The notes: generated by a model from the sequence alone, not told the origin. Shown: positions 37,998 through 57,184, counted from the first letter of the stretch. The stretch is DNA of 64,000 bases from Thermoanaerobaculia bacterium (GCA_035276475.1 DATELQ010000037.1:2482-66481), one strand, 5' to 3'. Numbers and translations are program-made.

Positions 37998-40763
37998 CTA
38001 CGCCGCCGCCTGCACCGCCGTCATCGTCTGCCGGTCGAGATCCGCGAGCAACGCGCCGGCGTCGGCGTAGCGGTCCTTGGGATTCTTGGCCAGGCAGCGC
38101 ATCACCATGGCGTCGACGGCGCGGCCGACGTCCGGGCGCACCTCGACGAGCGGCTTCGGCGTCTCGGTGATGTGCGCGGTCAGCACGCCCGTCAGCGATG
38201 ACGACGTGAACGGCTTCACCCCGCCGAGGATCTCGTAGAGCATCACCCCCATCGAGTAGACGTCGCTGCGCGCGTCGAGCTGCTGGCCCTGCACCTGCTC
38301 GGGGCTCATGTAGTGCGGCGTCCCCACGATTAGCCCCGCCTGGGTCATCCCTTCCTTCGCCTCGGCCATGCGCGCGATGCCGAAGTCCATCAGCTTCACT
38401 TCGCCCTTGTGGTCGATCAGCACGTTCTGCGGCTTGATGTCGCGGTGGATGATCCCCTGCTCGTGCGCGGCCTGCAGCCCGCGGCAGATCTGGCGCGACA
38501 GGCCCATGGCCGCGCGCGCGGCCATGCGGTGGTCGGGCGCCTCCTCGAGCAGCTCGGCGAGCGTGTAGCCGCGCACGTACTCCATGGAGATGAAGTAGAC
38601 GCCGTCAGCCTCGCCGTAGTCGTACGTGCGGAGCACGTTGCGGTGCGTGATCTTGCGCGCCAGGCGGATCTCGCGCTTGAAGCGCTCCAAATCCTCGGGG
38701 GACTTTTGCATCACGTCGCCGGGCAGCGTCTTGATCGCCACGGTCTCGTCGAGCTGCGTGTCGATGGCGCGGTAAACGACACCCATGCCGCCGCGCCCGA
38801 GGATCTGCTCGATGCGGTAGCGGTTCGCGAAGAACTGGCCTGCCGTCAACTCCGCGAGGGCGCCGGCGGGCGCGGTCTGCCCCGGCACGGTCGAATCGAC
38901 GCGCATCGTAGCCATCGAGCTCGTCGTCTGCCCGAGCGTGCGCATCATCGTCGAGCCGAGATTCGCCAGCGGCACCGCCGCGACGGGGAGCGGCTGCGGC
39001 AGCCACCGCAGCGCCACCTGCTCGTGCGTCGACGACGACAGGATCTCATTCCCCGCCGCCTGCGCCGTCTCGTACGAGATGTACGCGTAGCCGGTCGGCG
39101 CGTGCCATGCGAAGACTTCCGCGAGCAGCGGCGCGTTGCCGACGACCGCGAGACCGCTCTCCTGCTGTAGGTCGACCGAGCCGGTCACGAACTCGCCCGT
39201 GGCGATGCCGACGCCGATCTGCATCGTGTTGCCGTTGCCCTGCGCCACCAGCTCCTCGTTGATCGCGCGCGCGGCGCGGATGGCGTGGATGATGCCGCGC
39301 TCGCCGCGGAAGACGCTGACGAGGCGATGCCCTTTGATCTCGCGGACGACGCCGTCCTGGCGGTCCACTTCCGCTTCCTGCAGCTTCATGACGCGGGCGA
39401 CGTCGGCGATGACGTTGGCGGCGTCGCCGCCGCCGACCGTCGGCGGCAGTCCGCGCAGGTCGGTGACGAGCACCGTCCCCTCTTCGAGCTTGGCCGGCTC
39501 GCTCTTGCGGATGGCCTCGCGCTCCTCCGACCGCGCCGCCATCTGCTCGTACAGCTCCTCGAGCTCGGCCTTGTCGCGCAGCGACGTGATCATCTTCGCG
39601 AACGAACGCCCGAGGATGCCGACTTCGTCCTGGCGGTCGATGGCGGGGTGGACGTCGTAGTCGCCGTGCGTGACGGCTTGCGCGACGCCGGCCAGCTCTT
39701 CGATCGGCCGCGTGATGCGCTTGGCGATGAACCAGGAGAGGATGAAGGCGAGCAGCACCGCCACTCCGCCGCCGAGGAGGAGCGCCTTCTGGATCTCGCG
39801 GAACGGCGCGAGCTCGACGTCGAGCGAGCGGAGGAACACCGCGGCGCCGACGGTCTTGTTGCCCGAGGTCATCGGCTCGCCGGTCATGACGTACTGCGAG
39901 CGGTCGATCGTCACGGTTTTCGGCGGCATCTGCTTGCCGGTTCGGAAGATATCCTCGACGCCGGTCATCTGCTGCATGGTGAATTGAGGGGCGTTCTTGG
40001 AGCGGCCGGGCAAGCCGGCCTGCGAGACAAAGACCACGCCGGCGTTCGTCACGTTGGCAATCTTGTTGGCGAAGAGATCGTCGATGGCGACGCCGTTGAC
40101 GAAGTAGCCAATGCGCACGTTGTTCACGCCGAGGACCAGTGGCGCGACTGCGACGTGATAGAGATGATTGCCATCGGCCAGCACACCGGTGACCGCCGGA
40201 AGCGTGGCGTCGTCGACGATCTGCTTCACCAACGCCGATTCAGAGGCCATGTTCTCGTTCGGCGCTTGCGTCAGTGTCGGGCGATCGGTGCGCCCCATCA
40301 GATTGCCCTGCTCGTCGAGCAGCATCATCAGATCGGTACCGAGGGCTTCTTTTCGTTGCGTGAGCTGATCGGCGATGTCGAGATAGTTGATCGCAGGCGG
40401 CGCCGTCGGATTGGCCGGATCGGACGTCGGGTGAATGGCGTTCTGCAGGTAGGGGACGACGTTCGGATCATTCCCAAGCAGCCGCGTCGTGAGAGACAGC
40501 CGGGACAGCCGCTGTCTTTCGAATTCGCCGAACAACTGCGCCGCGCTCGAGATCGACTTATCCGCCGTCGCATGCGCGATCACCTGCGCGCGCTGCAGCG
40601 TCAGCCCCACCGCCACCGCCACGACGATGGCGATCAAGAGCGCGGTGAGAAAGAAAATCTTCCAGACCAGCGGGAACCGCGCCTTCTCCACCGCCATCTG
40701 CCGCGGCGTGACCGCGGGCATCGTTCCCGGCGTGACCGTGGTGTCGAGCGTCTGCGCGGTCAC
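37998..40763 (-). CDS. membrane sensor protein: TM / periplasmic domain / TM / HAMP / degenerate class-III cyclase-homology domain / C-terminal Ser/Thr protein kinase
   Basis: 921 aa; TM at about 35-57 and 335-357; HAMP (AKRITRPIEELAGVAQAVTHGDYDV); CHD-like block (GTVLVTDLRGL ... MQIGVGIATGEFVTGSVD ... AVVGNAPLLAEV) lacking the second metal Asp; kinase with GRGGMGVVY, AIK, HRDIKPQN, DFG, SPE. Confidence 0.8.
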   Translation of the reverse strand: MTAQTLDTTVTPGTMPAVTPRQMAVEKARFPLVWKIFFLTALLIAIVVAVAVGLTLQRAQVIAHATADKSISSAAQLFGEFERQRLSRLSLTTRLLGNDPNVVPYLQNAIHPTSDPANPTAPPAINYLDIADQLTQRKEALGTDLMMLLDEQGNLMGRTDRPTLTQAPNENMASESALVKQIVDDATLPAVTGVLADGNHLYHVAVAPLVLGVNNVRIGYFVNGVAIDDLFANKIANVTNAGVVFVSQAGLPGRSKNAPQFTMQQMTGVEDIFRTGKQMPPKTVTIDRSQYVMTGEPMTSGNKTVGAAVFLRSLDVELAPFREIQKALLLGGGVAVLLAFILSWFIAKRITRPIEELAGVAQAVTHGDYDVHPAIDRQDEVGILGRSFAKMITSLRDKAELEELYEQMAARSEEREAIRKSEPAKLEEGTVLVTDLRGLPPTVGGGDAANVIADVARVMKLQEAEVDRQDGVVREIKGHRLVSVFRGERGIIHAIRAARAINEELVAQGNGNTMQIGVGIATGEFVTGSVDLQQESGLAVVGNAPLLAEVFAWHAPTGYAYISYETAQAAGNEILSSSTHEQVALRWLPQPLPVAAVPLANLGSTMMRTLGQTTSSMATMRVDSTVPGQTAPAGALAELTAGQFFANRYRIEQILGRGGMGVVYRAIDTQLDETVAIKTLPGDVMQKSPEDLERFKREIRLARKITHRNVLRTYDYGEADGVYFISMEYVRGYTLAELLEEAPDHRMAARAAMGLSRQICRGLQAAHEQGIIHRDIKPQNVLIDHKGEVKLMDFGIARMAEAKEGMTQAGLIVGTPHYMSPEQVQGQQLDARSDVYSMGVMLYEILGGVKPFTSSSLTGVLTAHITETPKPLVEVRPDVGRAVDAMVMRCLAKNPKDRYADAGALLADLDRQTMTAVQAAA

Positions 40764-43136: not shown

Positions 43137-45161
43137 TCATTCGATGTAGCCGACGACGACCGTACCACGCGGAACTCTCGTTCCCGCTTTCGGTTCCTGA
43201 TGCCGCACGTAGGCCGAATGAGAGGGCTTCCCGCTGTATTGCGACAAGAAGCGAAGCCCGTATTTCTCGACCTCTGCTCTCGCCTGGTCTGCGCTCATCT
43301 TGAGGATGTACGGGACGACGACTTCGTCAGACAAATTGCGACCGGTCGACACATACACGGTGATGACCGATCCGCGCTTGACGAGCGTTCCTGGCGGCGG
43401 GTCCTGGCGCACGATGAGGCCGCGTGCGGCTCTGCTGTCGACGGATTCTGCACGCAACGTCAACCCCAGCCACGGGAGGTCGTCGGACGCCTGCATCCAT
43501 GTCTCTCCCCTGAGCTCGGGCACGATGACCGGCGGAGGTGGAGGCACGGGCGTAGGCGTGGGAGTAGGGGCAGATGACGACGACGATGGAGGTGGAGGTG
43601 GATGCGGCGGGCTCGGAACGAGCGGCGATGCGAGCTGCGCATATGCCTCCGAGTAGCTCTGTGCCAATTCGGAACGACCCAGTTTTGTCAGCGCTACGTC
43701 CGCGGCATGGAACGGAGCGGCGAAATCTGGATCGGATTGCGTGGCCCGCAGGAACGAAGCGAGTGCCTCCTCCCAATTTCCGCGGCGTGCGTGCAAGTAG
43801 CCCATGTAGAGGTGCGCGGGTGCGAACGAGGGGTCGCGCCGCAGGACGTCCTGGTATTGCGCGGTGGCGCGCTCGACGTCATTCGCCGCCTCGGCGACGC
43901 GCGCCAATCCGACGCGCGCGAACAGCGACTCCGGCTCGAATTTGAGGGCCAGGTTGAAATACCTCCGAGCCTCTTCGAGATTCGCGTTGGCGCGCAGCAG
44001 GGCCACCTCGCCGCGATGATAGGCAGGCTTGGCATGGTTCGGTTCGGCGCGGCCTTGGAGCGCCGGCTCGAGCACCTTGTCATACGCACTCTCGGCGCGT
44101 TCCAGGAGTTTTCGTGCCCCATCGGCGTCTCCTCGGCGATAGGCGGTCCCAGCTTCGTCAAGATAAAAATCTCCGGCGTCGTTGTTGGAAACGAATGCCG
44201 AGGGATTGATCTTGATAGCCCTCGCCAAGCGTTCCCCAGCTTTCGTGAAATCGCCCACCAGACGGTACGCCGTAGCGAGATTGTGATTGTAGACAGCGAC
44301 GTGACGCTCGTCGCCGGCGGAGGGCTCGCCACTTTTGACATAGGCCGCAATGGCCTTCGCCGGTTCCGCCCAATCGACATAGACATTGCCGAGGATTTCG
44401 AACTGCCCTTTGTCCTCAGGAGACCAGATCGTCCGGAAGCGCGCTTCACGATACGCGGCCGCGCGCTCTTTGTCGGAATCGAAGTTCGGAATCAACTGCA
44501 CGGACGGCCGCGCCGGCCGCATGGAGAGAATCACGTTCGCGTTGGCGTCGACGGCCTTGCGCACGCTCTCCTCGCCCGCAGGGCTGACCTCTGGTGACGC
44601 GCCGCCGGACGGAATCGTGAGACGGCGGAGAGGCGTCAGCCGGCGCCCGAGGCGTGCCTCCGGCGGCGCGACGGGCATGACCTCGAGCTCTCCTTCGAGT
44701 TGGAGAATCTCCGTTCCCGCCTCGGTCACTTCGACCTGGAATTCCGTTCCCTTTGCGGCAAGCGTCACGGTTTGCGTTCTTGCCTCGAAAAATCCCCGCA
44801 AGGTCGCAAACAACTTTCCAACGAGCAGGAAGATGGACTTCGAATTCGCCAGTTCGAACGAAGTGACGCCGTGAACCGTGATGTCTGCTTCCGACGCGCC
44901 GAGGGACATGACCAGAACCGAGGCGCCCAAAACCTGGATCCGGTCGCCGGCACAGAGCGGCATCCCCTTCCGAACCCTCGTCGACATCTGCCGGCGGATG
45001 ATCTTGATCTGCTCCTCGCCGGCGGACTGGGTGCTGACCGAGCCGATCGCGATGCCGGTGATTCGTCCGACCACCGGCGTATTGCACGACACTTCGTCCG
45101 GGGCGGCAAATCCGCTGGCTGCAATGGCCGACAATGCGACGACAGCCAGCGCCGTGCGCAT
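43137..45161 (-). CDS. secreted FecR-domain / TPR / proline-rich linker / tandem PASTA-domain protein
   Basis: 674 aa; signal peptide; FecR-like LAAKGTEFQVEV; TPR array; PPHPPPPPSSSSSAPTPTPTPVPPPPPV linker; two C-terminal PASTA-like modules. Confidence 0.7.
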   Translation of the reverse strand: MRTALAVVALSAIAASGFAAPDEVSCNTPVVGRITGIAIGSVSTQSAGEEQIKIIRRQMSTRVRKGMPLCAGDRIQVLGASVLVMSLGASEADITVHGVTSFELANSKSIFLLVGKLFATLRGFFEARTQTVTLAAKGTEFQVEVTEAGTEILQLEGELEVMPVAPPEARLGRRLTPLRRLTIPSGGASPEVSPAGEESVRKAVDANANVILSMRPARPSVQLIPNFDSDKERAAAYREARFRTIWSPEDKGQFEILGNVYVDWAEPAKAIAAYVKSGEPSAGDERHVAVYNHNLATAYRLVGDFTKAGERLARAIKINPSAFVSNNDAGDFYLDEAGTAYRRGDADGARKLLERAESAYDKVLEPALQGRAEPNHAKPAYHRGEVALLRANANLEEARRYFNLALKFEPESLFARVGLARVAEAANDVERATAQYQDVLRRDPSFAPAHLYMGYLHARRGNWEEALASFLRATQSDPDFAAPFHAADVALTKLGRSELAQSYSEAYAQLASPLVPSPPHPPPPPSSSSSAPTPTPTPVPPPPPVIVPELRGETWMQASDDLPWLGLTLRAESVDSRAARGLIVRQDPPPGTLVKRGSVITVYVSTGRNLSDEVVVPYILKMSADQARAEVEKYGLRFLSQYSGKPSHSAYVRHQEPKAGTRVPRGTVVVGYIE

Positions 45162-46610
45162 TTACGTCCCCTCGTTCTCCGAAGGTTTGGCGGACAAAGC
45201 CGGCGCGGCTCCGCAGTAGTAATACGACGCAATGACGGCGACTGCGCCGTATCCGACGTCGAAGAGCACCGAAGCGCTGCGGTAGAAGATCCAGACCACG
45301 ATCGCGTACAGCACGAGGAGCACGATCAGGCCCGCGGGGAGCTTGCGCTTTCCGGCGACCTTCGTGTCGACTTCGATGTCTGACTTCGGTAGTGACGATC
45401 GGCCAAAGCCGGCGATCGCGCCGAGGAGGAGCAGCACCGAAAGGTTGGCCCAGCCGGGCAGCGTTCGCGGATAGGTGTTGCGCGACAAGTCGCTGAAAAC
45501 GCTGGCGTGAAGCTGATAGCCGTATGCCTTGACCTGAGGCGTGATCTCGCAACGCTCCCTCTCGGTCTTTACGCCGATAAGCACGATCTGTCCCTTGTAC
45601 TCGTTTGCAAGACTGGACAGACGCTTGAGCTCTTTCACATATGAGTCGCCTTCGCCGAAACCGCGCCGGCCATAGCGAAGCGGCATGGTGGCGATGTTGT
45701 GACCGGTCTCGTCGGATTCGATCGTGCAGGAAATGCGGTCGATCTCCCGGTCGCCGGCATAGAGGATCAGACGTCGCGCTTTGGTGTCGAGCCTGACGGA
45801 CGGCCGCGCCTTCGACGATGGACTCTTCTCCAGAATTCGCATCATGACCGCGAGCGAGGCATACGCATCTTCCGGCGATACCGCGACGTTTGCGGGGAGC
45901 TTCGACCGCGCCAGCACGTATTTGCGGACGTACTCCGTGGAGGCGCCATGCTCGAGCCGCTTTCCACCGACGTGGACCCATCCCCAGGCGACGTCTTTGA
46001 ATGCATCGAGCAGGTCGGGGGTGTCATCGTTGCGCAGATCAGCTCCGAGCAGGATGCTCGTGGTCGCGCTCTGCACGGCTTTCACCATTTCGGCGTTGGC
46101 GCTCTGATACTCCGCGCCGTCGTTCGGCGAGGGAAACGTCAGATCGAACGCGACGAACTTCGGCGCATTCGCGAGCGCCTGAAGGAACAAGGCGTGCTGC
46201 CGCCGCCATAGTTGTTCCTCTTGAGCGAAATTGCCGCGGACGTTCTCGAGCGTGTCTTTCTCGTCGATATACAGCATGTGCAGCGACGGCGTGGATCGCG
46301 CCGCGACGCTGTATTCCATCTGTTCGAGCTGCAGACGCTCGAGCCAGTCGTCGATGCCGAGAAGGTTGAGCAGGTGAGTGAATGAGGCTAGGGAGACGGC
46401 GAGTACGACGAGAAAGAGTTTCCACACGAATCGCGCACGGCGATGATTCGTGACCAGCAGGAGCTTCCGCAGCGTATGACCTCCGGACGTATGCAGATCA
46501 TGATACGCGCGACCGGCCTCGAGGATGCGATCGGGACGTACTGGCGCGACCGGCTGTAATTTCGCTGAAACGCTAGCGGTCTTTCCGTCACTACATAACG
46601 GAATGACCAT
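45162..46610 (-). CDS. stand-alone CHASE2 sensor-domain membrane protein (no output domain)
   Basis: N-terminal TM, about 300-aa extracytoplasmic CHASE2-like region, 3 C-terminal TM; start uncertain (ATG at 46610 would overlap the divergent gene by 8 nt; a downstream GTG is possible). Confidence 0.65.
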   Translation of the reverse strand: MVIPLCSDGKTASVSAKLQPVAPVRPDRILEAGRAYHDLHTSGGHTLRKLLLVTNHRRARFVWKLFLVVLAVSLASFTHLLNLLGIDDWLERLQLEQMEYSVAARSTPSLHMLYIDEKDTLENVRGNFAQEEQLWRRQHALFLQALANAPKFVAFDLTFPSPNDGAEYQSANAEMVKAVQSATTSILLGADLRNDDTPDLLDAFKDVAWGWVHVGGKRLEHGASTEYVRKYVLARSKLPANVAVSPEDAYASLAVMMRILEKSPSSKARPSVRLDTKARRLILYAGDREIDRISCTIESDETGHNIATMPLRYGRRGFGEGDSYVKELKRLSSLANEYKGQIVLIGVKTERERCEITPQVKAYGYQLHASVFSDLSRNTYPRTLPGWANLSVLLLLGAIAGFGRSSLPKSDIEVDTKVAGKRKLPAGLIVLLVLYAIVVWIFYRSASVLFDVGYGAVAVIASYYYCGAAPALSAKPSENEGT

Positions 46611-47364
46611 CGTCCAGGCACCCGTCCAACGGGTATGCACCACCTGCGGCGCCACGCTCAGTCCGGGCGCGCGCAAGTGCTCGGAATGCACGTCGTATCA
46701 GGGCGAATGCGACGCCTGCGGGATGCCGATCCCCGAGAACGCCAAGCGCTGCTCCGGATGCAAGGCCTTCCAGGACGGGCATCCCTGCCGGTCGTGCGGA
46801 CTGACAATGCCGGCTTCCGCGAAGCGATGCCCGGAGTGCAAGGCGTTCCAGAACTGGCGGGCCTTCGTTCCGGACAATCAAGTCGTACTGGCTCTCCTCG
46901 TCTCGCTGATCTCGATCCTGAGCGCCGTCGTGCCGGCGGCCTACAAAGCGTGGAACAACCGCTCCGACGCGTACGTGCGCGTGATCGGCCACACCGTCGA
47001 CAACGACTCCAATCCCGTGTTGCTCGTTCTGGTGGCCAACAACGGAGGCCGTCCCGCTCTCGTCCGCGGCGCCGCCCTGGTCGGAAAAGGGCTGCCCATC
47101 GGCAGTACGCCGCTGACGATCCTCGATCCGACGCAGGAGCTCGTGCTGCCGTCGAAAGCGACGATGCTCCGCCTGACGACGCTGGATATCAACACGCCGG
47201 CCAAGCGCGACGCGCTCCTGGCGTTGCTGCCGAAGGGCGAGATCACCGTCAGCGTGGAGGTGGAAGAGACGGGACGGCTCGGCCGCCGTTTCACCCGTCA
47301 GCAGTCCGACGTTGCAAAGGGGGCCCAAATTGAGGAACTGGTGCAGAAGCGCGTTCTTCCTTAG
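46603..47364 (+). CDS. triple zinc-ribbon membrane protein of unknown function
   Basis: 253 aa from MTIVQAPVQRVCTTCGATL; three CxxC-N10/11-CxxC double-zinc-ribbon-like motifs, one TM, about 150-aa extracytoplasmic tail. Confidence 0.6.
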   Translation: MTIVQAPVQRVCTTCGATLSPGARKCSECTSYQGECDACGMPIPENAKRCSGCKAFQDGHPCRSCGLTMPASAKRCPECKAFQNWRAFVPDNQVVLALLVSLISILSAVVPAAYKAWNNRSDAYVRVIGHTVDNDSNPVLLVLVANNGGRPALVRGAALVGKGLPIGSTPLTILDPTQELVLPSKATMLRLTTLDINTPAKRDALLALLPKGEITVSVEVEETGRLGRRFTRQQSDVAKGAQIEELVQKRVLP

Positions 47365-48058
47365 CTTCGTGAGCGCCTCGGCGGCCGCGCAGGTGTGCGA
47401 CCTCGTGCGCGTGGAGTTCAATGGCTGCGCCGGCGCAAGCCTCCCGGCCGCGATCGACGTGAACGTCGGCGACGAGACCCTCACGGTCCGAAAGCAGCCG
47501 GACGGTGCGTGGGAAGGGCGCGCCCAAAGCTCGTTCCGGCCGTCGCAAAAGACACTGACCGTCGATCTGCCGAACGTCCGCACGACGTGCAAGGTCAGCG
47601 GAAGTGCGCAGACCATCGCCGGCGGCGCCTCGTGCCGCGCGGTCTACAGCGTCCGCTGCGAGTCGCTCTGGTCGTTGCACGTGACGAACACGATCAAGAA
47701 GAAGACGCCGCTGTCGTACCGCTGCGAGACGGAAGCGAACACCATCCGCTCCTGCGACGACGATGCGGCGCCCACCGCCGCGACCATCGCGCTCGTTCCC
47801 GAGTCTCCGCTGACCATTCCGCCGGTCGGCGTCTCGCAGGGCGTCATCCTCGGCCTCACCTCCGCCGACGGAACGGCCATCGAGTACATGGTCAAGGAGA
47901 AGACGCTGCGGAAGCTCGGCAAAACGGTGAAGCTCTCCGCGCTCCCTCCCCGTCCGGCAGTGCAGAGCGCCGGAGGCTCGAATCCGTTCCTCACCGCGCT
48001 CAAGACGCAGCAGGCGCTCGCCTTCGAGCACATCGTTCTGACGTGGGACACGCCATGA
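47312..48058 (+). CDS. cysteine-rich secreted hypothetical protein
   Basis: 248 aa; hydrophobic N-terminus; 8 Cys; start uncertain (overlaps upstream gene by 53 nt; TTG alternatives). Confidence 0.45.
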   Translation: MQRGPKLRNWCRSAFFLSFVSASAAAQVCDLVRVEFNGCAGASLPAAIDVNVGDETLTVRKQPDGAWEGRAQSSFRPSQKTLTVDLPNVRTTCKVSGSAQTIAGGASCRAVYSVRCESLWSLHVTNTIKKKTPLSYRCETEANTIRSCDDDAAPTAATIALVPESPLTIPPVGVSQGVILGLTSADGTAIEYMVKEKTLRKLGKTVKLSALPPRPAVQSAGGSNPFLTALKTQQALAFEHIVLTWDTP

Positions 48059-48960
48059 GACGCGTCGGGCTGGCCGCCGTTCTTCTGCTCTGCTCCATCG
48101 CGAGCCGCGCGCAGGAGTTCGAGATCTTCGATCCGAACGACTTCATCGACCCGCGCGAGCGCGGCGCCGTCTTCGCCCCGACGGGGTGGCAGCTTCTCGC
48201 GCCCGGGAGTCCGTTCTCGGTCGTGCGGGTCTACGGCGGGCAGGTCAGCAACTATCAGTGGCGCGACACGCCCACCGGCGCGGATCTCACGTTCGCGCAC
48301 GTGGTCTGGAACCGCTATCGCGACAACCGCCAGTTCAACCTGAAGCTGACGACGTACGACGTCGAGGAGGGCGCTCACCTGCCGTGGTACCGCGGCACGA
48401 TCCAGTTCGCGCGCTACTTCGCCATTCCGACGACCCGAGGAATGTCGGTCGGCGCCGGAGACCCGGTGCGCGCCGCCGGGCGGATCCTCTTCACCGGCTC
48501 GCTCGAACAGAACCCGCTGCGGGAAACGGACGTCCGCGCGCGCGTGGTCGATCACGAATTCGGCATCGAGGTGGACGCGTATCTCCGGACGACGAGGTTC
48601 ACCACCTCCGGCTCGGTGGTCTGGACGCGGCGCGTCGTCGACGACGGCCGCTACGCCGACCGCCTGGTCTATTTTTACCGCGGACCGGAGATCAGCAAGT
48701 TCGACAACCGCCTCCGCTTCGCCGCGAACCTCGCCTGCGGCGGCGAGCACACCGACCGCTGGCGCTGGGGCGCCACCCGCCTGATCGCAACGACGTCGAT
48801 CGATCTCCCGACGGCGGGCGGCCGGCGGCTCGGAACGGTGAATCTGGCCTGGGGTCCGTCGTACCTGCCGGGCAGCGCGACGCAGCGTACGCAGCGCGAG
48901 CTGGCCATTTACTTCGACCGCACCGTCATGGCCCACCTCGGACCGTTGCCGCTGCGGTGA
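48055..48960 (+). CDS. secreted hypothetical protein
   Basis: 301 aa from MRRVGLAAVLLLCSIASRAQE signal peptide; ATGA overlap with upstream gene. Confidence 0.55.
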   Translation: MRRVGLAAVLLLCSIASRAQEFEIFDPNDFIDPRERGAVFAPTGWQLLAPGSPFSVVRVYGGQVSNYQWRDTPTGADLTFAHVVWNRYRDNRQFNLKLTTYDVEEGAHLPWYRGTIQFARYFAIPTTRGMSVGAGDPVRAAGRILFTGSLEQNPLRETDVRARVVDHEFGIEVDAYLRTTRFTTSGSVVWTRRVVDDGRYADRLVYFYRGPEISKFDNRLRFAANLACGGEHTDRWRWGATRLIATTSIDLPTAGGRRLGTVNLAWGPSYLPGSATQRTQRELAIYFDRTVMAHLGPLPLR

Positions 48961-48989
48961 GCGTGCGGTAGCGGCGACATTCGCGGATA

Positions 48990-49598
48990 ATGGACGCGAT
49001 GTCGACGCCCGAATCCGCTCTGGTCAGTCCGACCGAGTATCTCGAGATCGAACGGAATTCCGAGATCCGGCACGAGTACGTCAACGGACGGATGTACGAG
49101 ATGTCGGGCGCCAGCGACGCGCACTCTCTCATCGGTTGGAACCTGATCAGGGTACTTTCCAATCAGATAGGCGACCGTCCCTGTCGCGTGTACTACGGGG
49201 ACATGCGCGTGAAGGTCAGCCCTACGGGGATGTATACCTATCCCGACATCGCCGCGCTCTGCGACAAACCTCGACTCGAGAATTTCAAGGGCATCGACAC
49301 GCTGCTGAACCCGAGCGTGATCATCGAAGTGCTCTCCCACACGACCGAGTCGTACGACCGCGGCGACAAGTTCGAGCACTACCGCCGTCTGGAGTCGCTG
49401 CAGGAGTACGTTCTCGTGCCGCAGCACCGGATGCGCGTCGAGCAGTTCGTCCGCGACGGCGCCGACTGGCGGCTGTCGGAGCTCAGCGACCCACAGGCAT
49501 TGCTCCGCCTCGCGCCGATCGGCTGCGAGATCAGCCTCGCCGACATTTACCGAGGCGTCGAGTTCCCGAGCATCGAGAGCTCGCGCTGGCCCCGCTGA
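48990..49598 (+). CDS. Uma2-family (DUF820) putative endonuclease
   Basis: 202 aa; PTEYLEIERNSEIRHEYVNGRMYEMSGAS ... YPDIAALCD ... SVIIEVLSHTTESYDRGDKFEHYRRLESLQEYVLV matches Uma2 restriction-endonuclease-like fold family. Confidence 0.75.
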   Translation: MDAMSTPESALVSPTEYLEIERNSEIRHEYVNGRMYEMSGASDAHSLIGWNLIRVLSNQIGDRPCRVYYGDMRVKVSPTGMYTYPDIAALCDKPRLENFKGIDTLLNPSVIIEVLSHTTESYDRGDKFEHYRRLESLQEYVLVPQHRMRVEQFVRDGADWRLSELSDPQALLRLAPIGCEISLADIYRGVEFPSIESSRWPR

Positions 49599-49648
49599 TC
49601 GCACAATCGACGGCAACCGCCGCGGTCATCGCCGGCGTGTTTGCCGCG

Positions 49649-50392
49649 ATGCTGATCGCGGAGTCGCTCGCGCCACTGCGGCGCACCGTCGAGTCGAAGC
49701 TGCGCCGCGTCGCGCGCAACCTGACGATCGGCGGCATCGCGCTGGCGATCACGCCGTGGCTGCAGGCGCTGCTGCTGCATCCGACGGCGGCGTGGATCGC
49801 GCGGCACCACGTCGGCCTCTTGCAGATCGTGCAGTGGCCGCCGTGGCTCGAGACGCTCGTCGCCGTCGTCCTTCTCGACTACACGCTCTGGTGGTGGCAC
49901 TGGGCCACGCACCGCGTGCCGTTCCTCTGGCGCTTTCACCTCGTGCACCACGTCGACCGCGACCTCGACGCCTCCACCGCGCTGCGCTTCCACTTCGGCG
50001 AGCTGGCGCTCTCCGTCCCGGTGCGCGCGCTGCAGATAATCGTCATCGGCGTCGAGCCGCACGCGCTCTGGCTGTGGCAGACGATCGTCTTCGCCTCGAT
50101 CCTCTTCCACCACTCGAACCTGCGCCTGCCCGAGGCCTTCGAGCGCGTGCTCGTGCGCGTCATCGTCACGCCGCGCATGCACGGCATCCATCACTCCGAT
50201 CGCCTCGGCGACACCGACAGCAACTGGTCGAACCTCCTCTCCGCGTGGGACTCCCTGCACGGCACGATGCGGCTCGACGTCGCGCAGCCGGAGATCACCA
50301 TCGGCGTGCCGGCGTACGCGGATCGCGAGGAAGTCACGATCGGGAAGATGCTCCTCCTCCCCTTCCGCCGGCGCCTGCGCGAGTGGCGCTGA
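49649..50392 (+). CDS. sterol desaturase / fatty-acid hydroxylase superfamily membrane protein
   Basis: Histidine boxes HWATH, HLVHH, HGIHHSD; true start probably upstream (in-frame GTG 49637 or CTG 49595) to include first TM. Confidence 0.65.
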   Translation: MLIAESLAPLRRTVESKLRRVARNLTIGGIALAITPWLQALLLHPTAAWIARHHVGLLQIVQWPPWLETLVAVVLLDYTLWWWHWATHRVPFLWRFHLVHHVDRDLDASTALRFHFGELALSVPVRALQIIVIGVEPHALWLWQTIVFASILFHHSNLRLPEAFERVLVRVIVTPRMHGIHHSDRLGDTDSNWSNLLSAWDSLHGTMRLDVAQPEITIGVPAYADREEVTIGKMLLLPFRRRLREWR

Positions 50393-50435
50393 TTGCGCGA
50401 TCGGTGATCGCCGGCGAACGGACCGCGATCGATGC

Positions 50436-50649
50436 CCTGCGTGTCCATGCTCCGAGACCGGCGAGCACTGCTCCACGGCCTGCGTGTCCGTGCTCCGAGG
50501 CCGGCGAGCACTGCTCCACGGCCCGCGTGTCCGTGCTCGCAGACCGGCGAGCATTGCTCCATGCCTCGCGCGTCCGTGCTCGCAGGCCGGCGAGCATTGC
50601 TCCATGCCTCGCGTGTCCGTGCTCGCAGGCCGGCGAGCATTGCTCCACG
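50436..50649. repeat. tandem array of five ~43-bp hairpin-containing units
   Basis: cctgcgtgtccgtgctcgcaggccggcgagcattgctccayg x5 (period 42-43, few SNPs); each unit carries the palindrome TGCTCGCAGGCCGGCGAGCA; between convergent genes. Confidence 0.9.
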
Positions 50650-50692
50650 CGGGGCGTGCACGCGCACGCACGGGAGCGATGCGTGATCGCCG

Positions 50693-51028
50693 CTAGCGGA
50701 TCGTCGCCCGCTCCAGCGCGCCGGCCGCCGCGAGCACTTCGCGCAGCTCGCCGCTCGCGCGCTCCACGTCGTCGACGGCGATGCGCAGGAACATCTCGCC
50801 GCCCCCCGAGCCGGAGTCGTCGACCTTGCCGATGCCGCGCTTGGCGATCTCGTCCTCGATCGTGTTCCGCAGTTGCAGCTCCTCGCGCATGGCCATCCCC
50901 TTTCCCATCAACCGGATCGACACGACGACGTGCGGCCGCGCGTCCTCGGCGCGCAGGCGCTCCGCTTTCTTGCGCACGAAGTGGCCGAAGATGATGAAGA
51001 GGACGAGCGGGACGATGATCCAGACCAC
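50693..51028 (-). CDS. small membrane-anchored hypothetical protein (N-terminal TM, cytoplasmic tail)
   Basis: About 111 aa from in-frame GTG overlapping upstream stop (TAGTG); VWIIVPLVLFIIFGHF TM. Confidence 0.4.
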   Translation of the reverse strand: MVWIIVPLVLFIIFGHFVRKKAERLRAEDARPHVVVSIRLMGKGMAMREELQLRNTIEDEIAKRGIGKVDDSGSGGGEMFLRIAVDDVERASGELREVLAAAGALERATIR

Positions 51029-51495
51029 TACACGGCCTCGCGCGCGCGCTGCCGCTGGGCCAGGCGCTGGAGGAAGTCGTAGGCGAGGCCGCCGCTGGTG
51101 CGCTTGAGCGTGAGGAAGTAGACCGCCAGGGCGACGACCCCGCCGATCCAGGCCAGCGCGCCGAGCTGGTTCGTGCGCCCGGCAAAGAACGGCCAGAGCG
51201 TGAACAGCAGCGCCCCGGCCACGCCCGCGAGGAGCAGCGCCAGCCGCTGCGCCTTCGGCGCGTCGATCTCGCGGTTGCAAACGAGCGTCACCGTCGTCTC
51301 GCTCTCCGCCGCCCACGACACCGTGCACTCCACCCCGCCCGCCACCGCCACCCCGCGGCGCAGCGGCAGCACGAAGTCGCGCTCGTTGTCGCGCTCGGCC
51401 TTCATCTCGCCGCCGTAAAGGTCGACGAGCTCCGCGATCGTCTCTTCGATGCCGTCGCGGGGGATGCGGTCTTCGGTCAGCTCAACGGGGGTCAT
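51028..51495 (-). CDS. hypothetical membrane protein (soluble N-domain then 2 TM)
   Basis: 155-aa ORF; C-terminal LALLLAGVAGALLFTLWPFF and LAWIGGVVALAVYFL helices. Confidence 0.5.
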   Translation of the reverse strand: MTPVELTEDRIPRDGIEETIAELVDLYGGEMKAERDNERDFVLPLRRGVAVAGGVECTVSWAAESETTVTLVCNREIDAPKAQRLALLLAGVAGALLFTLWPFFAGRTNQLGALAWIGGVVALAVYFLTLKRTSGGLAYDFLQRLAQRQRAREAV

Positions 51496-51536
51496 GCGGG
51501 TCTGTCGAACTACTCCTACAACGAAAGGGGATAGTC

Positions 51537-51944
51537 ATGTCAACCACGAATGACGCCGAAGTCACGAAGTACACCGTCGTCGTGAACAGCGGTCAGGCCA
51601 CGCTCAAGGCATTGATGACGTTGAACGGCGGTGCCACGGTCGCGTTTTTGGCATTCATGGGGCACCTCTTGGAAAAAGGCGAGCCCGCTGCGAATCTCCA
51701 CGTGCTGCTGGGCGCGCTGCCGTATCTCATCGGCGGCACCTTCTGCGCGGTCCTGGGCTACGGCCTGATCTTCCTCACGGGCTGTTGCAGCTTGGCCCGA
51801 TGGCACACGGCGTCGAACGTCATGTTCGGCTCCGCAGTCTTCGTCTGCGTCGCGTCCATCGTCTTCTTTCTTTTGGCGAGCTTGCGCGCGGTGAGCGCGT
51901 TCGACTTCCTGACTCAGTCCCGCACCGCAATGTTGTATTTCTGA
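51537..51944 (+). CDS. hypothetical integral membrane protein
   Basis: 135 aa; AAAGGGGA SD 7 nt upstream; 4 predicted TM. Confidence 0.5.
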   Translation: MSTTNDAEVTKYTVVVNSGQATLKALMTLNGGATVAFLAFMGHLLEKGEPAANLHVLLGALPYLIGGTFCAVLGYGLIFLTGCCSLARWHTASNVMFGSAVFVCVASIVFFLLASLRAVSAFDFLTQSRTAMLYF

Positions 51945-54900
51945 ATCTTTGCCTTCAGCGTGTTCCGGGCCAGTCCGAGCCGCCGCGCCGCCTCGCGGAT
52001 GCGGCCGCCCGACGACTCCAGCGCGCGCTCGATGAGCTGGCGGTCGACCGACGACATCACCTCGTCGTAGATGTCGCTGGTGATGTCCATCTTCCCGATC
52101 ACGGGATTGAGCAGCGAGCTCGGCATCGGCACGGGGCCGGCGTCGGGCGAGGGCGGGACGATGTCGGTGAAGAGCCCGTAGAAGTCGTTGCGCGTGATCG
52201 TCTCGCCGTTCGACATCACGATGGCGCGGTGCAGCGTCGCCTCGAGCTCGCGGATGTTGCCGGGCCAGTTGTAGCGCAGGAAAAGATCGAGCACGCCCGG
52301 CTCGAGATGCTTCGTCTCGATGCCGAGGTCACGGCAGATCTTGCGCATGAAATGCTCGGTCAGGACCGGGATGTCGTCCTTGCGCTCGCGCAGCGGCGGG
52401 AGGATCAGCGGGATGATGTTGAGGCGGTAGTAGAGATCCTCGCGGAACGTCCCCTGATCGATGGCCTTCTCGATGTCGAGGTTCGTCGCGGCGATGATCT
52501 TCACCTCGGTTTTGATCGTCTGCGTGCCGCCGACGCGCTCGAACTCCTTGTCCTCGACCACGCGCAGCAGCTTGGCCTGGATCGCCAGGCTCACCTTCCC
52601 GATCTCGTCGAGGAAAATCGTCCCGCCGTTGGCGAGCTCGAAGCGGCCGAGCTTGCGGCGGTCGGCGCCGGTGAACGAGCCCTTCTCGTGGCCGAACAGC
52701 TCCGATTCGGCCAGCGTCTCCGGCAGCGCCGCGCAGTTGAACTTGATGAACGGACCGTTCCGGCGCGGCGAGACGTTGTGGATGATGCGCGCCACGAGGC
52801 CCTTGCCCGAGCCCGACTCGCCGCGCAGCAGCACCGTGGAGTTCCCGCTGGCGGCCTTGCGGATGGAGAACTGGATCTTCGCCACCGCCTCCGACTGCCC
52901 GACGATCGAGTCGAGGTGCTTCTCGATCAGCACCTCGCGGCGCAGCGACTCATTCTCAAGCGATAGCCGCGTGCGCGCCTCCTCGAGCTCCTCGTACAGC
53001 CGCGCGTTCTCGATGGCGATCGCCGCCTGATCGGAGAACGCTTCGAGGAAGTTCAGATCCTTCTGCGAGAAGAGGTGCCGGGCCTGGCGATGGTCGACGT
53101 AGATCGCGCCGGCGATGCGGTCCTTGATGATGAGCGGCACGCAGAGGATCGAGAGGATGTTCTCCGTGATCACCGACTCCGACTCCACGAAGCGCTCGTC
53201 CGCGCGCGCGTCGGCCGACATCACCGACTGCCCGCTCTGGATCACCTCGCGCACGATCGACTGCGGCGAGCGCTTCGAGTCGGACTCCCCCTCGTTGATG
53301 TTGCGCACCACGCGCGTGCGCAAGGCGCTCGTGATCGGATCGAGCAGCAGGATCATGCCGCGCTCCGCGCGCAAACGCCGGATCGCGAGGTCGAGCACGC
53401 GCGACAGCACTTCCTGCAGGTCGAGCGAGGAGTTGATGATCTTGACGACTTCGTAGAGCCCGACGACCGCGCTCGGCACCTGCACCTTGCCGCCCGGGCG
53501 GATGCGGAACAGCGCGCCGCGGGCGCGCTCGAGGTCGTGCGGGGCGTCGAGGCGCTCGAAGATGCGAATCGCGCCGCGGATCGTCTGCGTGGCCTCCTCG
53601 GCGTCGTCCTTCAACAGTCCGATGTCGAACAGCAGCCGCCCGAGCTCGTACGGCGTCTCCAGCTCCTCGAACGTCACGCGCGCCGCTTCGAAGCGGACGT
53701 TGGCGGCTTCGCGGTCGCCGTTGGCGTAGAGGATCTTCCCCCACATCCAATCGTTCTTGGCCTTGCTGAAGCGGTCGCCGAGCTGGTCGGCGTACTGTGC
53801 GCCGAGCTCCGCGTGCTGCATGGCGTCGTCGAGCTTCTGCTGCGAGAAGCAGAGGCTGGCCTTGGCCGTGTGCGCGCGGGCCAGGCCGTTCGTCGTCTGC
53901 TTGTCCTCGAAAATCTTCAGCGCGCGGCCGAGGTAGCGGTCGGCGTCGACGTAGTTCTCGCGCTCGTCCTCGATCGCCGCAAGCACGTAGCAGGCCTCGG
54001 CGATGCTGTCCTCTTCGCGGGCGCGCTCGGCCGCCGAGAGCGCCTTCTGCACGTACTCGAGGGCTTTGGCGATGTCGCCCTTCTTGTTCATCAGGCGCGC
54101 CAGCGGGATGTAGACCGACGAGCGCGACGCACGCGACTCGTCGAAGCCGCGCATGTTGATGCAGCGCGTGTACTGCTCGAGCGCATCGGCCCAGCGCCCG
54201 AGCATCTCCAGCGCCTCGCCGGCGTTCTCGCGCGCCAGGGCCTCGTACTCGATCGCGCCGATCTTCTCGTCGATGCGCACGGTCTTGTCGAAGTATTCGA
54301 GCGCGGAGTGGAAGTTGCCGCGCCCGAACTCGATGATGCCGACGTTGTTGTAGGCGGTGATGAGGTCCCACAGGTCGCCCTCGGACTCGGAAAGCTCGAG
54401 GTTCAACTTGTAGTACTGCAGCGCGCTCGTCCAATCGCCGGTCTTCCAGAGCGTGTTGCCGAGGTTCGTCGACGCCACCTTGGAGAGTTGCTCGGAGCCG
54501 ACTTTCGATCCCACTTCCACGGCCTGCAGCAAGAGCTCCTTCGAAGCCTGCCAGTTGCCGAGCGAGTACTCGATCGAGCCGAGCGTGTTCTTGATGTAGC
54601 CGTAGACGATGTTCGGCTCTTTGCCTTCGAGCAGCGCCTCCGCGCGCTCCGACGTCTCCCGCGCCGTGGCGTAGTCGCCCATGTCCTTATACAGCCAGGC
54701 CATGCGGTTGAGGAGCTCGGCCAGCTCGATCGTCTCGCCGAGGCGCTCGTAAATCTCGCGGGCGTTGTTGTAGTACGAGAGCGCTGAGTCCTGCTCGCCG
54801 CGCTTCGTCAGCACCTTGCCGATCTTCTTCATCACCCGGGCGAGGTCGGCGTTCGCCTCGTGGTCCTTCGCGCGGGTCTGGATGCTCTTCAGAAGGTACT

Positions 54901-57184
54901 GGTACGCCTGCATGGCGCCGCGGAAATCGTTGCTGCGGTAGTAGGCGTCGGCGAGCTTCTCGCGCACCTCGGCCTTGTGCGCCTCGTCGTGGCCGGCCAG
55001 GTCCATCAGGTCGAGCGCGCTGCGGTAGAACTCCGTCGCCTCCTCGTGCGCGAGCGTGCGGAAGGCGAGGTCGCCCGCCTCGACGGCGTAGCCGATCCCC
55101 TTCTCCGGCTCGTCGGCGCGCGCGAAGTGATACGCGACCTGGCCGAGGAGCTGCGTCAATCCGCCGGCAAGCAGCGGCTCGAGCACGTGGCCGACGCGGT
55201 GATGCAGCTCGCTGCGCCGGCGGTCGTGCATGGAGTTGTAGAGCGCGTCGCGCAGGTGGATCTGCGGGAAAGAGACGCTCTTGCCGTCCGAGGCTTCGTC
55301 GAGGAGACCGTCGCGGATCAGGTCGCGCAGGATGAGATACGCCTTCTCGGCCGACGCGTCCGCTGCCTGCGTCAGGAGATCGACCTCCGACACTTCCCCG
55401 AACACCGCCGCCGTCTCCAACAGCGCGCGCTGCTCGTCGGTGAGGTCGTCGACCTTCTCCATCAGGATCGACGCCGCGCCGCCGGGGATGCGCAGCGCGC
55501 GGATGCGGTCCATCTCCACCATCCAGCCGTTCGCCGTCCAGCAGAGGAAGTCGTGGGCGATGAGGTAGTCGACGATGCGGCGGATGTTCAGCGGCGAGCC
55601 GGTCGACTCCCACAACATCCAGCGCACGAATTCGTCGGAGACGTTCTCGTACCCGAGGAGCGATTGCAGGTGCTCGCGGACGAGTGCCTCGTTCAGCGTG
55701 GAGACGCGGATGAGCGGGAAGCTCCCCTCGCGGGCGCGTTGCTCCCACGCCACGAGCTCCGCCGAGCCGTCGTCCGCGGTCAGCGTGCCGATGACGAGAA
55801 GGCGGTTCTGCTTCGCCTCGCCGACGAGGAACGAGAAGAGCTCGCTCGTCGACGGATCGGCCCACTGCAGGTCTTCGATGAGGATGATGAGCGGCGAGCC
55901 GCTCCCCTCGCCGGCAGAGAGGAACCCGTACATGTCCTGCATCGATTGCACGATGCGGTTGTAGAGGCGGTATTTCTGGCTGTGCGCCGGCGTCGTCTCT
56001 TCGCCCTGCGGCGGCACGAGCGGCCGCAGCAACCGCCGCAGCTCCTCGGTGACGTCGGCGCTCGGGTTCACCGCCGCGACCATCTGCTGGAAGATCTCGA
56101 AGAACGGCGCGTAGATCGTCTTGCGGTTGATCGGGCAGCGGCCGCAGAAGACGCGCGCGCCGTCGAGCTGCGCGCGCAGCGTGGCGTCGCGCACGATGCG
56201 GCTCTTCCCCATCCCCTCGGGGCCCGCAACGATGACGCCGCAGCCGCGGCCGTCGCGCGCGTCGCCGATCATCGTGGCGAGCTGGTTGATCTCGTGCTTG
56301 CGCCCGATCAGCGGCGCGGCAAAGAGCTCGCCGCGGCCGACGAGAAGCTCGCCCGCCGGCGCGGTCTTGCCCGCCGCTTGCGCGACCGCTTGCAGCAGCG
56401 CGGCGGCGGAGACGAAGCGGTGCCGCGGGTCCTTCTCGAGCAGCTTCATGATGATCTGCTCGAGCGCGTCGGGCACGCGTGGGTTGATCGACGACGGCGG
56501 ACGGATCTCGCCGTCGAGGTGGAGGCGGATGACTTCGATCTGCTGTTTGCCGTACGCCGGCAGCGCCCCGGTGACGGTCTCGTACAGCGTCATGCCGAGG
56601 GCGTAGAGGTCGGCGCGGGAGTCGACGCGGTCCTGGCGCAGCACCTCGGGCGCCATGTAGTGCAGCGTGCCGCGGATCTGCCGGTCGAGGACCTGATGGC
56701 TTTCGACGGCGACGCCGAAGTCCATGATCTTGGCCTGCCCATGGTCGCTGACGAGGATGTTCGAGGGCTTGAGGTCGAGGTGGATGATGCCGAGGTGGTG
56801 GATGTGGTGCAGCCCCGAGGCGATCTGCAGGATCACGTCGTAGAGCGCGTCCCAGTTCTGGCCGTCGAAGAACTCGGAGATCTTCCGGCCGGCGAAGTAC
56901 TCCATGGTGAAGTACGGGAAACCGTCGTCGAGCAGGCCGAAGTCGAAGACCTTGACGATCGACGGGTGCTCGAGGCCGGCCAGCGTCGCGAACTCTGCCT
57001 TGAACCGTAGGAGTTGCTGCGGCTCGGAGAGCTCGTGGCGGAGGATTTTGATGGTCTCGTCGCGCTTGTCGGAGACGTCGAAGACCCGATAGACGGCGAC
57101 GGCGGGGGTTTCTTTCAGGACCGTCCGGATTTGGAACCGCGGCGGCAGCTGAAGTTCGGGCGCGAGTGTCTCGGCTGTGGTCAT
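51914..57184 (-). CDS. giant multidomain regulator: Ser/Thr kinase / P-loop (STAND/AAA) NTPase / TPR array / GAF / sigma-54 activator AAA+ domain / Fis-type HTH
   Basis: 1756-aa uninterrupted ORF; kinase (IKIL Lys, HLDLKPSN, DFG, APE; no Gly loop); P-loop GPEGMGKSR; long TPR; GAF; sigma54 domain (GESGSGKG, GSFTGA, DEIG); C-terminal HTH RIREAARRLGLARNTLKAKIQKY. Confidence 0.85.
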   Translation of the reverse strand: MTTAETLAPELQLPPRFQIRTVLKETPAVAVYRVFDVSDKRDETIKILRHELSEPQQLLRFKAEFATLAGLEHPSIVKVFDFGLLDDGFPYFTMEYFAGRKISEFFDGQNWDALYDVILQIASGLHHIHHLGIIHLDLKPSNILVSDHGQAKIMDFGVAVESHQVLDRQIRGTLHYMAPEVLRQDRVDSRADLYALGMTLYETVTGALPAYGKQQIEVIRLHLDGEIRPPSSINPRVPDALEQIIMKLLEKDPRHRFVSAAALLQAVAQAAGKTAPAGELLVGRGELFAAPLIGRKHEINQLATMIGDARDGRGCGVIVAGPEGMGKSRIVRDATLRAQLDGARVFCGRCPINRKTIYAPFFEIFQQMVAAVNPSADVTEELRRLLRPLVPPQGEETTPAHSQKYRLYNRIVQSMQDMYGFLSAGEGSGSPLIILIEDLQWADPSTSELFSFLVGEAKQNRLLVIGTLTADDGSAELVAWEQRAREGSFPLIRVSTLNEALVREHLQSLLGYENVSDEFVRWMLWESTGSPLNIRRIVDYLIAHDFLCWTANGWMVEMDRIRALRIPGGAASILMEKVDDLTDEQRALLETAAVFGEVSEVDLLTQAADASAEKAYLILRDLIRDGLLDEASDGKSVSFPQIHLRDALYNSMHDRRRSELHHRVGHVLEPLLAGGLTQLLGQVAYHFARADEPEKGIGYAVEAGDLAFRTLAHEEATEFYRSALDLMDLAGHDEAHKAEVREKLADAYYRSNDFRGAMQAYQYLLKSIQTRAKDHEANADLARVMKKIGKVLTKRGEQDSALSYYNNAREIYERLGETIELAELLNRMAWLYKDMGDYATARETSERAEALLEGKEPNIVYGYIKNTLGSIEYSLGNWQASKELLLQAVEVGSKVGSEQLSKVASTNLGNTLWKTGDWTSALQYYKLNLELSESEGDLWDLITAYNNVGIIEFGRGNFHSALEYFDKTVRIDEKIGAIEYEALARENAGEALEMLGRWADALEQYTRCINMRGFDESRASRSSVYIPLARLMNKKGDIAKALEYVQKALSAAERAREEDSIAEACYVLAAIEDERENYVDADRYLGRALKIFEDKQTTNGLARAHTAKASLCFSQQKLDDAMQHAELGAQYADQLGDRFSKAKNDWMWGKILYANGDREAANVRFEAARVTFEELETPYELGRLLFDIGLLKDDAEEATQTIRGAIRIFERLDAPHDLERARGALFRIRPGGKVQVPSAVVGLYEVVKIINSSLDLQEVLSRVLDLAIRRLRAERGMILLLDPITSALRTRVVRNINEGESDSKRSPQSIVREVIQSGQSVMSADARADERFVESESVITENILSILCVPLIIKDRIAGAIYVDHRQARHLFSQKDLNFLEAFSDQAAIAIENARLYEELEEARTRLSLENESLRREVLIEKHLDSIVGQSEAVAKIQFSIRKAASGNSTVLLRGESGSGKGLVARIIHNVSPRRNGPFIKFNCAALPETLAESELFGHEKGSFTGADRRKLGRFELANGGTIFLDEIGKVSLAIQAKLLRVVEDKEFERVGGTQTIKTEVKIIAATNLDIEKAIDQGTFREDLYYRLNIIPLILPPLRERKDDIPVLTEHFMRKICRDLGIETKHLEPGVLDLFLRYNWPGNIRELEATLHRAIVMSNGETITRNDFYGLFTDIVPPSPDAGPVPMPSSLLNPVIGKMDITSDIYDEVMSSVDRQLIERALESSGGRIREAARRLGLARNTLKAKIQKYNIAVRD

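Follow-up and report, generated by a model that had tools for sequence, protein, structure and literature searches.

Within a 64,000-nucleotide (nt) stretch of DNA from a soil lineage of Acidobacteriota (Thermoanaerobaculia; DATELQ010000037.1:2482-66481), hereafter the window, positions 46603–48960 of the plus strand carry three overlapping genes that we read, with a probability of about 45%, as a self-contained envelope-spanning module of the diderm Acidobacteriota cell. The architecture of this trio is well supported. Gene 1 encodes a bitopic inner-membrane protein composed of a zinc-ribbon array, one transmembrane (TM) helix and a periplasmic domain, gene 2 an exported protein of two domains, and gene 3 a predicted outer-membrane (OM) protein with a signal peptide, a highly conserved N-terminal box and a 12-stranded β-barrel. 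We document here the gene structure and co-conservation of the trio, its signal peptides, the zinc-ribbon membership of gene 1 and the predicted barrel and sandwich folds; the topology of gene 1, the disulfides of gene 2, a physical complex, a role for the box and a biological function are what we infer beyond them. The folds of genes 1 and 3 are of known kinds; gene 2 and the combination of the three genes have no described counterpart, and our literature searches returned no description of such a trio.

Gene structure and conservation of the cassette

All three genes lie on the same strand with overlapping frames, which bears out an earlier note on this stretch, made from the sequence by itself, that had described an overlapping, translationally coupled trio. 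Gene 1 (46603–47364, plus strand; 253 amino acids, aa) starts at the same codon as the NCBI call HKS22347.1, named 'zinc ribbon domain-containing protein'. Gene 2 (47330–48058, plus strand; 242 aa) most plausibly starts at TTG 47330, because AAGGGGG lies just upstream and initiation there yields a canonical, family-typical signal peptide, MRNWCRSAFFLSFVSASAAA, cleaved before QVC; an existing 242-aa gene call agrees with this start. Initiation at the NCBI call for gene 2 (GTG 47369, 229 aa) leaves no signal peptide, and nearly all family members have one. The earlier note had placed the start at TTG 47312, which is possible and less plausible than TTG 47330, and had correctly described an overlap with gene 1, which measures 35 nt from TTG 47330 or 53 nt from TTG 47312 at the end of gene 1 (stop codon 47362–47364). 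Gene 3 (48055–48960, plus strand; 301 aa) has the open reading frame (ORF) and length given in that note, and its ATG overlaps the TGA of gene 2 in the ATGA at 48055–48058. The same 4-nt overlap of genes 2 and 3 recurs in six related loci (L001, L002, L004, L006, L023 and L032).

The public annotation of the trio consists of one 'zinc ribbon domain-containing protein' and two entries named 'hypothetical protein'; the gene 3 product is 100% identical to VJZ76_06100, a 'hypothetical protein' of a Thermoanaerobaculia (Acidobacteriota) metagenome-assembled genome (MAG). The G+C content of the window is ~65%. A promoter and terminator scan returned nothing in the trio region, including no sigma-70 consensus promoter 5′ of gene 1, and an Rfam scan of 45000–52000 gave no match.

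The trio is found in at least 12 independent Thermoanaerobaculia loci whose flanks are unrelated between lineages. The order gene 1-gene 2-gene 3, with overlapping or nearly abutting frames, is present in L001, L002, L004, L005, L006, L007, L012, L014, L023, L025, L029 and L032, and is retained wherever enough flank is available, with L020 and L031 as exceptions. Compared with the L005 relative, whose products are 91–93% identical, the ratios of nonsynonymous to synonymous substitution rates (dN/dS) are 0.20, 0.20 and 0.24 for genes 1, 2 and 3, respectively, and all three genes are under purifying selection. Recurrence in at least 12 independent loci together with dN/dS near 0.2 argues that the trio is not a chance arrangement. 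The families are small: a word-indexed search recovered 20 clusters of gene 3 homologues, a profile search of 1.84 billion entries recovered 31 representatives or clusters of the gene 2 family, and the gene 2 profile, used as a third homology search, added one new protein. Within the GTDB representative genomes, all matches come from Thermoanaerobaculia MAGs; a metagenome scan added 14 loci. Searches for the trio in viral contigs and plasmids were negative and thus give no link to mobile elements.

Comparison of the window with L005 also locates the edges of the unit. The two are similar at the DNA level from ~40 nt before the ATG of gene 1 as far as the stop codon of gene 3; they are unrelated further upstream and near-identical from GCTGAAACG...TTTCCGTCACTACATAAC to the ATG. 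Because similarity begins there, this conserved leader (46562–46602, plus strand) marks the 5′ boundary of the cassette. The flanks elsewhere are diverse: PIN/MazE genes and a BNR protein; GGDEF and SIR2_2/CHAT genes; MgsA and a cyclase; an amidohydrolase and an ion channel; or a peptidase S9. As the gene order is kept while the flanks vary and similarity to L005 is confined to the cassette, the alignments indicate that the trio is a discrete, self-contained unit.

Predicted architecture of the three proteins

The AlphaFold2 (AF2) model of gene 3 (pLDDT 81, pTM 0.77) contains twelve long antiparallel strands that close into a barrel similar to solved OM barrels. Gene 3, a secreted protein in the earlier note, is therefore predicted to be an integral 12-stranded OM β-barrel rather than soluble. 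Its signal peptide (residues 1–19), assigned by eye, is MRRVGLAAVLLLCSIASRA with cleavage before QE, and all 17 gene 3 sequences show, again by eye, a hydrophobic N-terminus followed by an invariant A-Q. The barrel occupies residues 54–295. Given the strand order of the model, the extracellular loops are very short (2–12 residues), and in several strands hydrophobic residues alternate with polar ones. The invariant residues R113, Q117, Y121, R143, D174, E282, Y286 and T290 lie on the polar strand faces, which are presumably lumenal. With regard to a possible C-terminal β-signal ending in an aromatic residue, the last strand, E.AIY.DRT..A.L, is conserved and is followed by a tail of 5–8 residues in the main branch; the distant L008 protein ends in ...ALFVKVF.

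The best-conserved element of gene 3 is the N-terminal box of the mature protein, QEFEIFDPNDFIDPRERGAVF (residues 20–40; 48112–48174, plus strand), which is near-invariant in homologues. Residues F25, D26, P27, D29, F30, D32, P33, R34, E35, R36, G37, A38 and F40 are invariant in the 17 sequences, and the mean pairwise identity is 0.86 in the box versus 0.46 in the barrel. The core FDPxDF[IL]DPRER is retained even in the L008, L020 and L026 relatives at 24–35% overall identity. Residues 31–50 are ordered in the AF2 model, with pLDDT values of 84–91, and presumably pack against the barrel.

Gene 2 is modelled with higher confidence (pLDDT 89.8, pTM 0.80) and comprises a signal peptide (residues 1–20), a β-sandwich (residues 23–133) and an α/β domain (residues 149–240). 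An alignment of 34 sequences shows conservation of C23, C33, C87, C102, C110, C142, R84 and W114, and the six conserved Cys would form disulfides, probably three. The earlier description of gene 2 as a Cys-rich, exported protein agrees with these Cys and with the family-wide signal peptides. Throughout the family the first conserved Cys lies 1–3 residues after the signal peptide, and the cleavage regions are of the AxA type, not lipoboxes. Of all parts of the trio, the C-terminal domain of gene 2 varies most (mean identity 0.20).

Searches of Pfam, NCBIfam, PADLOC and PHROGs gave no match for genes 2 and 3, and profile searches of the PDB with both returned noise only. For gene 2, a Foldseek search of the PDB gave nothing at E ≤ 1e-3, and no solved relative was found. 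For gene 3, no Pfam family was recovered at E ≤ 0.1, neither Plug nor TonB_dep_Rec matched, and a profile of 17 homologues did not find the COG4313 channel 4RL8 in the PDB at E ≤ 10.

Gene 1 opens with three tandem Cys4 zinc ribbons (C12–C29, C36–C53 and C62–C79; 46636–46839, plus strand), in the pattern C12xxC15-N10-C26xxC29, C36xxC39-N10-C50xxC53 and C62xxC65-N10-C76xxC79. The three motifs had been counted correctly in the earlier note; the spacers, given there as 10 or 11 residues, are all 10. Zn_Ribbon_1 (PF13240) matches gene 1 at 31.6 bits (gathering threshold 25; E = 1.3e-07) and DZR (PF12773) at 30.4 bits (gathering threshold 27.3; E = 4.4e-07), and DZR matches all 12 gene 1 homologues. 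By these profile scores the N-terminus is a bona fide Zn_Ribbon_1/DZR member, and zinc binding is predicted. As such, the previous view that no member of the trio carries an assignable motif holds for genes 2 and 3 and fails for gene 1, which lies above the Pfam gathering thresholds. Across 12 homologues, ribbons 2 and 3 keep all eight of their Cys without exception; the four of ribbon 1 are nearly invariant and absent only from the two-ribbon L025 protein. Ribbon number varies, with one in L032, two in L025, four in L029 and three in most homologues, so that the 'triple' ribbon does not stand as a hallmark of the family.

The ribbons are followed by a single TM helix (about V94–Y114; 46882–46944, plus strand) and a tail of ~135 aa that holds a C-terminal domain (46966–47361, plus strand), which upholds the earlier reading of a zinc-ribbon protein with one TM helix and an extracytoplasmic tail. 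The Cys4 ribbons and the WRR that precedes the helix in most homologues predict an N-in, C-out topology, which would place the ribbons in the cytoplasm. The helix, with conserved L96, A97, L98, S104, A108 and P111, is the best-conserved part of gene 1 after the Cys (mean pairwise identity 0.50 versus 0.29 in the periplasmic domain). The periplasmic domain is probably an Ig-like β-sandwich, as suggested by sub-threshold matches to Cep192_D5 in three members (best E 3e-4) and to Ig_NUP210_2nd in one; N146 and G148 are invariant in the homologue alignment. A relationship between this domain and gene 2 was rejected (profile–profile probability 0.2%). A PDB profile search with gene 1 returned generic zinc-ribbon matches only, and DUF3426, TonB-C and GYF gave no Pfam match in the 12 homologues at E ≤ 1. 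A zinc-binding anti-sigma factor acting with an extracytoplasmic function (ECF) sigma factor was also rejected, as zf-HC2 (HxxxCxxC) has no match in the gene 1 family and neither the window nor most other loci have a sigma gene next to the trio.

A proposed envelope-spanning assembly and its alternatives

Because the three proteins are assigned to three compartments, their reading frames overlap and they are inherited together, we favour a single assembly that would span the envelope. Gene 3 would contribute a small 12-stranded OM barrel with very short extracellular loops and a conserved polar lumen, and its acidic, invariant box would either plug the lumen, as the N-terminal segments of COG4313 channels and post-cleavage autotransporters do, or serve as a periplasmic docking handle. 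Gene 2 would act as a disulfide-stabilised periplasmic connector, held in a fixed ratio with the barrel through the ATGA coupling. Gene 1, anchored in the inner membrane, would offer its Ig-like periplasmic domain to the gene 2 connector and its ribbons, whose number (1–4) could tune avidity, to a cytoplasmic partner, much as ZitP and GltJ do with their ZnR domains. In sum, the assembly would tie the cytoplasm to the state or position of a plugged OM channel, for signalling, gating or tethering/positioning.

Parts of this assembly have precedents. The barrels of post-cleavage autotransporters hold an N-terminal plug in the lumen. In the structure of a COG4313 channel, the N-terminal 14 residues lie inside the lumen of a 12-stranded barrel (PMC4493636), and in FapF the plug is joined to a periplasm-spanning coiled coil (PMC5557850). 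On the inner-membrane side, ZitP (Caulobacter) and GltJ (Myxococcus) are bitopic like gene 1, each with a single TM helix between a cytoplasmic ZnR and a periplasmic domain, and their ZnR domains bind cytoplasmic partners of envelope machines, PopZ for ZitP and MglB for GltJ (PMC11135422). Unlike these proteins, gene 1 has 1–4 tandem ribbons, no GYF/linker region and no detectable DUF3426 or TonB-C; the likeness is one of architecture, and homology is claimed for the generic ribbon only. The same ribbon is common to the DZR/Zn_Ribbon_1 membrane proteins of Pfam, which are of unknown function, but those families cover the ribbon alone, whereas the TM helix with its periplasmic domain and the partner genes 2 and 3 are specific to the trio family.

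A more specific form of the assembly is a trans-envelope relay in which the gene 3 box would be read by gene 2 and the signal passed to the gene 1 ribbons and on to a cytoplasmic target; we put it forward tentatively, and hold with equal reserve that such a relay would follow a TonB-box- or RcsF-like logic built from unrelated parts and confined so far to Thermoanaerobaculia. The parallel with TonB is by analogy only, namely a short conserved N-terminal periplasmic segment on an OM barrel paired with a bitopic inner-membrane protein that has a conserved TM helix and a periplasmic domain. In contrast to TonB-dependent transporters, gene 3 has 12 strands rather than 22, no plug domain and a box of unrelated sequence, and the cassette holds neither ExbB/ExbD nor a TonB-C domain. 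In the distant branch, the relay may serve the IPTL-CTERM surface proteins encoded next to it.

Several observations weigh against an envelope-spanning assembly. Contact between the three proteins is presumed, and the small size of the family rules out an analysis of covariation. The distant L020 locus has a gene 2-like and gene 3-like pair with no gene 1, such that gene 1 may be dispensable, and in L031, where the contig stops 130 nt after gene 2, genes 1 and 2 are present and no start of gene 3 is seen. The Ig-like fold of the gene 1 domain comes solely from Pfam matches below threshold, and across the loci no conserved neighbour suggests a cytoplasmic partner for the ribbons. The gene 3 box is a candidate lumen plug or periplasmic docking handle.

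Another, in our view unlikely, explanation is that the trio takes up a small or hydrophobic molecule, in which case gene 3 would be a COG4313-, KdgM- or PcoB-type substrate channel, gene 2 a periplasmic binding or carrier protein and gene 1 its inner-membrane receptor or anchor. The ~280 aa of mature gene 3 and the conserved segment before its first strand fit COG4313 (PMC4493636), and in both the window and L005 the trio lies between acyl-CoA dehydrogenase and fatty-acid hydroxylase genes. However, sequence identity to the COG4313 channels (Pput2725, PDB 4RL8; TcpY; SphA) is 8%, with no Pfam or profile match, and on sequence criteria gene 3 is not a member of COG4313/Phenol_MetA_deg, FapF, autotransporter or any other OM protein families. 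COG4313 genes are described as mainly proteobacterial, some of them in catabolic operons, and in contrast to gene 3 they have no described coupling to a zinc-ribbon membrane protein or a Cys-rich periplasmic partner. Moreover, no catabolic or transporter genes are co-conserved with the trio and the lipid-metabolism neighbours are missing from most loci, it is not obvious what a cytoplasmic array of zinc ribbons would do in passive uptake, and the likeness to C2 is no stronger than noise among β-sandwiches.

Alternatively, the gene 3 barrel could, like a split autotransporter or a FapF-like exporter, secrete or display gene 2 as a cargo that gene 1 delivers or regulates. The translational coupling of genes 2 and 3 would suit such a pairing, gene 2 evolves fastest, with a C-terminal domain averaging 20% identity as for an exposed protein, and in the distant branch the pair adjoins IPTL-CTERM surface proteins. 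The barrels of autotransporters and FapF (NalP 1UYO, Hbp, EspP; FapF 5O65) resemble gene 3 in size and have an N-terminal plug segment (PMC5557850), a role for which the gene 3 box is a candidate. Yet gene 3 has no fused passenger, no helical plug with coiled coil and no trimerisation domain, only ~25–35 residues before the barrel and no Pfam Autotransporter match, and it likewise has no POTRA domain or coiled-coil platform. Gene 2 has no amyloid-like or repeat character, and as a compact protein with six conserved Cys and probably three disulfides it would pass with difficulty through a pore of ~10 Å. Secretion or surface display is for these reasons distinctly improbable.

It is more improbable still that gene 3 is an OM enzyme, such as an LpxR- or OMPLA-like hydrolase of lipid A or phospholipid, with genes 1 and 2 as its regulators. 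The many invariant polar residues of gene 3, including H82, D174, D202, E282, T290 and S187, would be compatible with an active site, but LpxR and OMPLA rank below channels and translocators and are 6–7% identical to gene 3, and conservation peaks in the N-terminal box, not at a site within the wall of the barrel.

A conflict or defence system, for example one of membrane-acting abortive infection or exclusion, has a similarly slight chance of being correct. The patchy distribution of the trio and flanks that sometimes include Uma2 (PADLOC PDC-S03), PIN/MazE or SIR2_2 with CHAT-AAA are what recommend it. Set against them are the absence of any meaningful PADLOC or PHROGs match for genes 1, 2 and 3, of an effector domain in the trio and of copies in the viral contigs and plasmids searched, and the location of other loci among housekeeping genes (MgsA, SurA-like, MreBC).

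To our knowledge, the envelopes of Acidobacteriota are almost unexplored by experiment, and the architecture of zinc ribbon, TM helix and extracytoplasmic domain found in gene 1 is very common and unexplained. The cassette defines a new sequence family of small OM barrels whose N-terminal box is unusually conserved, a periplasmic protein lacking any relative of solved structure, and a zinc-ribbon inner-membrane partner of variable ribbon number. If the envelope-spanning complex is real, it would be a compact and tractable case of an OM protein wired to the cytoplasm independently of TonB, Tol and Rcs, and would give the zinc ribbon-TM-extracytoplasmic architecture a concrete role; if the trio is merely a substrate channel with accessory proteins, it would be a lineage-specific curiosity. 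Either way, its narrow distribution and the absence of a functional handle limit its significance.

Neighbouring genes and repeats

A CHASE2 membrane protein and a FecR-like/TPR/double-PASTA protein are encoded between an acyl-CoA dehydrogenase gene and the trio (43137–46691, minus strand). Although this pair is adjacent to the trio and divergently oriented in the window, a working partnership with it, for which the earlier note had proposed a check of co-conservation, is, alone among the alternatives, contradicted by the comparative data and can be set aside, since tblastn with the window neighbours found no true CHASE2 or FecR-TPR-PASTA match in 33 related loci. The proposed co-conservation fails even in L005, whose gene 3 product is 93% identical; because both genes are absent there at the same position, the pair is a lineage-specific insertion unrelated to the trio. 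The single 45-aa CHASE2 match in L005 lies antisense inside gene 1 and originates from the over-long 5′ end of the CHASE2 ORF. The long call for this ORF (start 46691) overlaps gene 1 in antisense, and its 5′ end is probably over-extended.

The Uma2 endonuclease gene that had been reported after the trio is present at 48990–49598 (plus strand). It belongs to the Uma2 family (Pfam, 7e-33) and also matches the PADLOC candidate system PDC-S03. In L005 the order is acyl-CoA dehydrogenase, Uma2, trio and fatty-acid hydroxylase. Uma2 thus lies 3′ of the trio in the window and 5′ of it in L005 (1415–2017), and is absent from all other loci, which marks it as a mobile neighbour rather than a part of the unit; its two positions also show that the surroundings of the cassette have been rearranged locally.

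A fatty-acid hydroxylase/sterol desaturase-family gene is found in the window (49136–50392), L005 (4474–5223), L009 (1260–2006) and L006 (801–1544, minus strand). It lies directly 3′ of the trio in the window and its close relatives, and was rejected as a conserved partner, as among the related loci it adjoins the trio only in the close relatives L005 and L009. In the distant L006 locus, a copy with 72% identity is encoded ~5 kb upstream and in the opposite orientation, and the proximity looks like residual synteny rather than a functional link. Directly 3′ of the trio in L006 (8944–9756) lies the gene of an ion-transport channel whose C-terminus forms a zinc ribbon (Ion_trans 1.5e-36 and Zn_ribbon_3), which adds to the membrane proteins of this lineage that carry a cytoplasmic zinc ribbon.

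In the distant branch, the gene directly upstream encodes a surface protein with He_PIG repeats (L020, 1163–3229; L025, 1–495), which in L020 also has an ice-binding-like domain. Both proteins have a C-terminal IPTL-CTERM motif at borderline Pfam scores (20.7 and 19.6 bits for a cut-off of 20.8), and in L020 this gene directly precedes the gene 2-like gene, with gene 1 missing. The motif is confined to the L020/L025 branch and was absent from the window and all main-branch loci. We know of no sorting machinery identified for IPTL-CTERM surface proteins.

Two very large ORFs flank the region on the minus strand, at 37998–40763 and 51914–57184. By eye, the 921-aa product has a Ser/Thr kinase domain, and the 1756-aa product resembles a fusion of kinase, AAA/TPR, GAF and sigma-54-activator domains. 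Finally, five 43-bp tandem units (91% matches) lie 3′ of the fatty-acid hydroxylase gene at 50434–50650, each with a short G+C-rich palindrome, TGCTCGC...GCGAGCA, and they are possibly a REP-like intergenic repeat.

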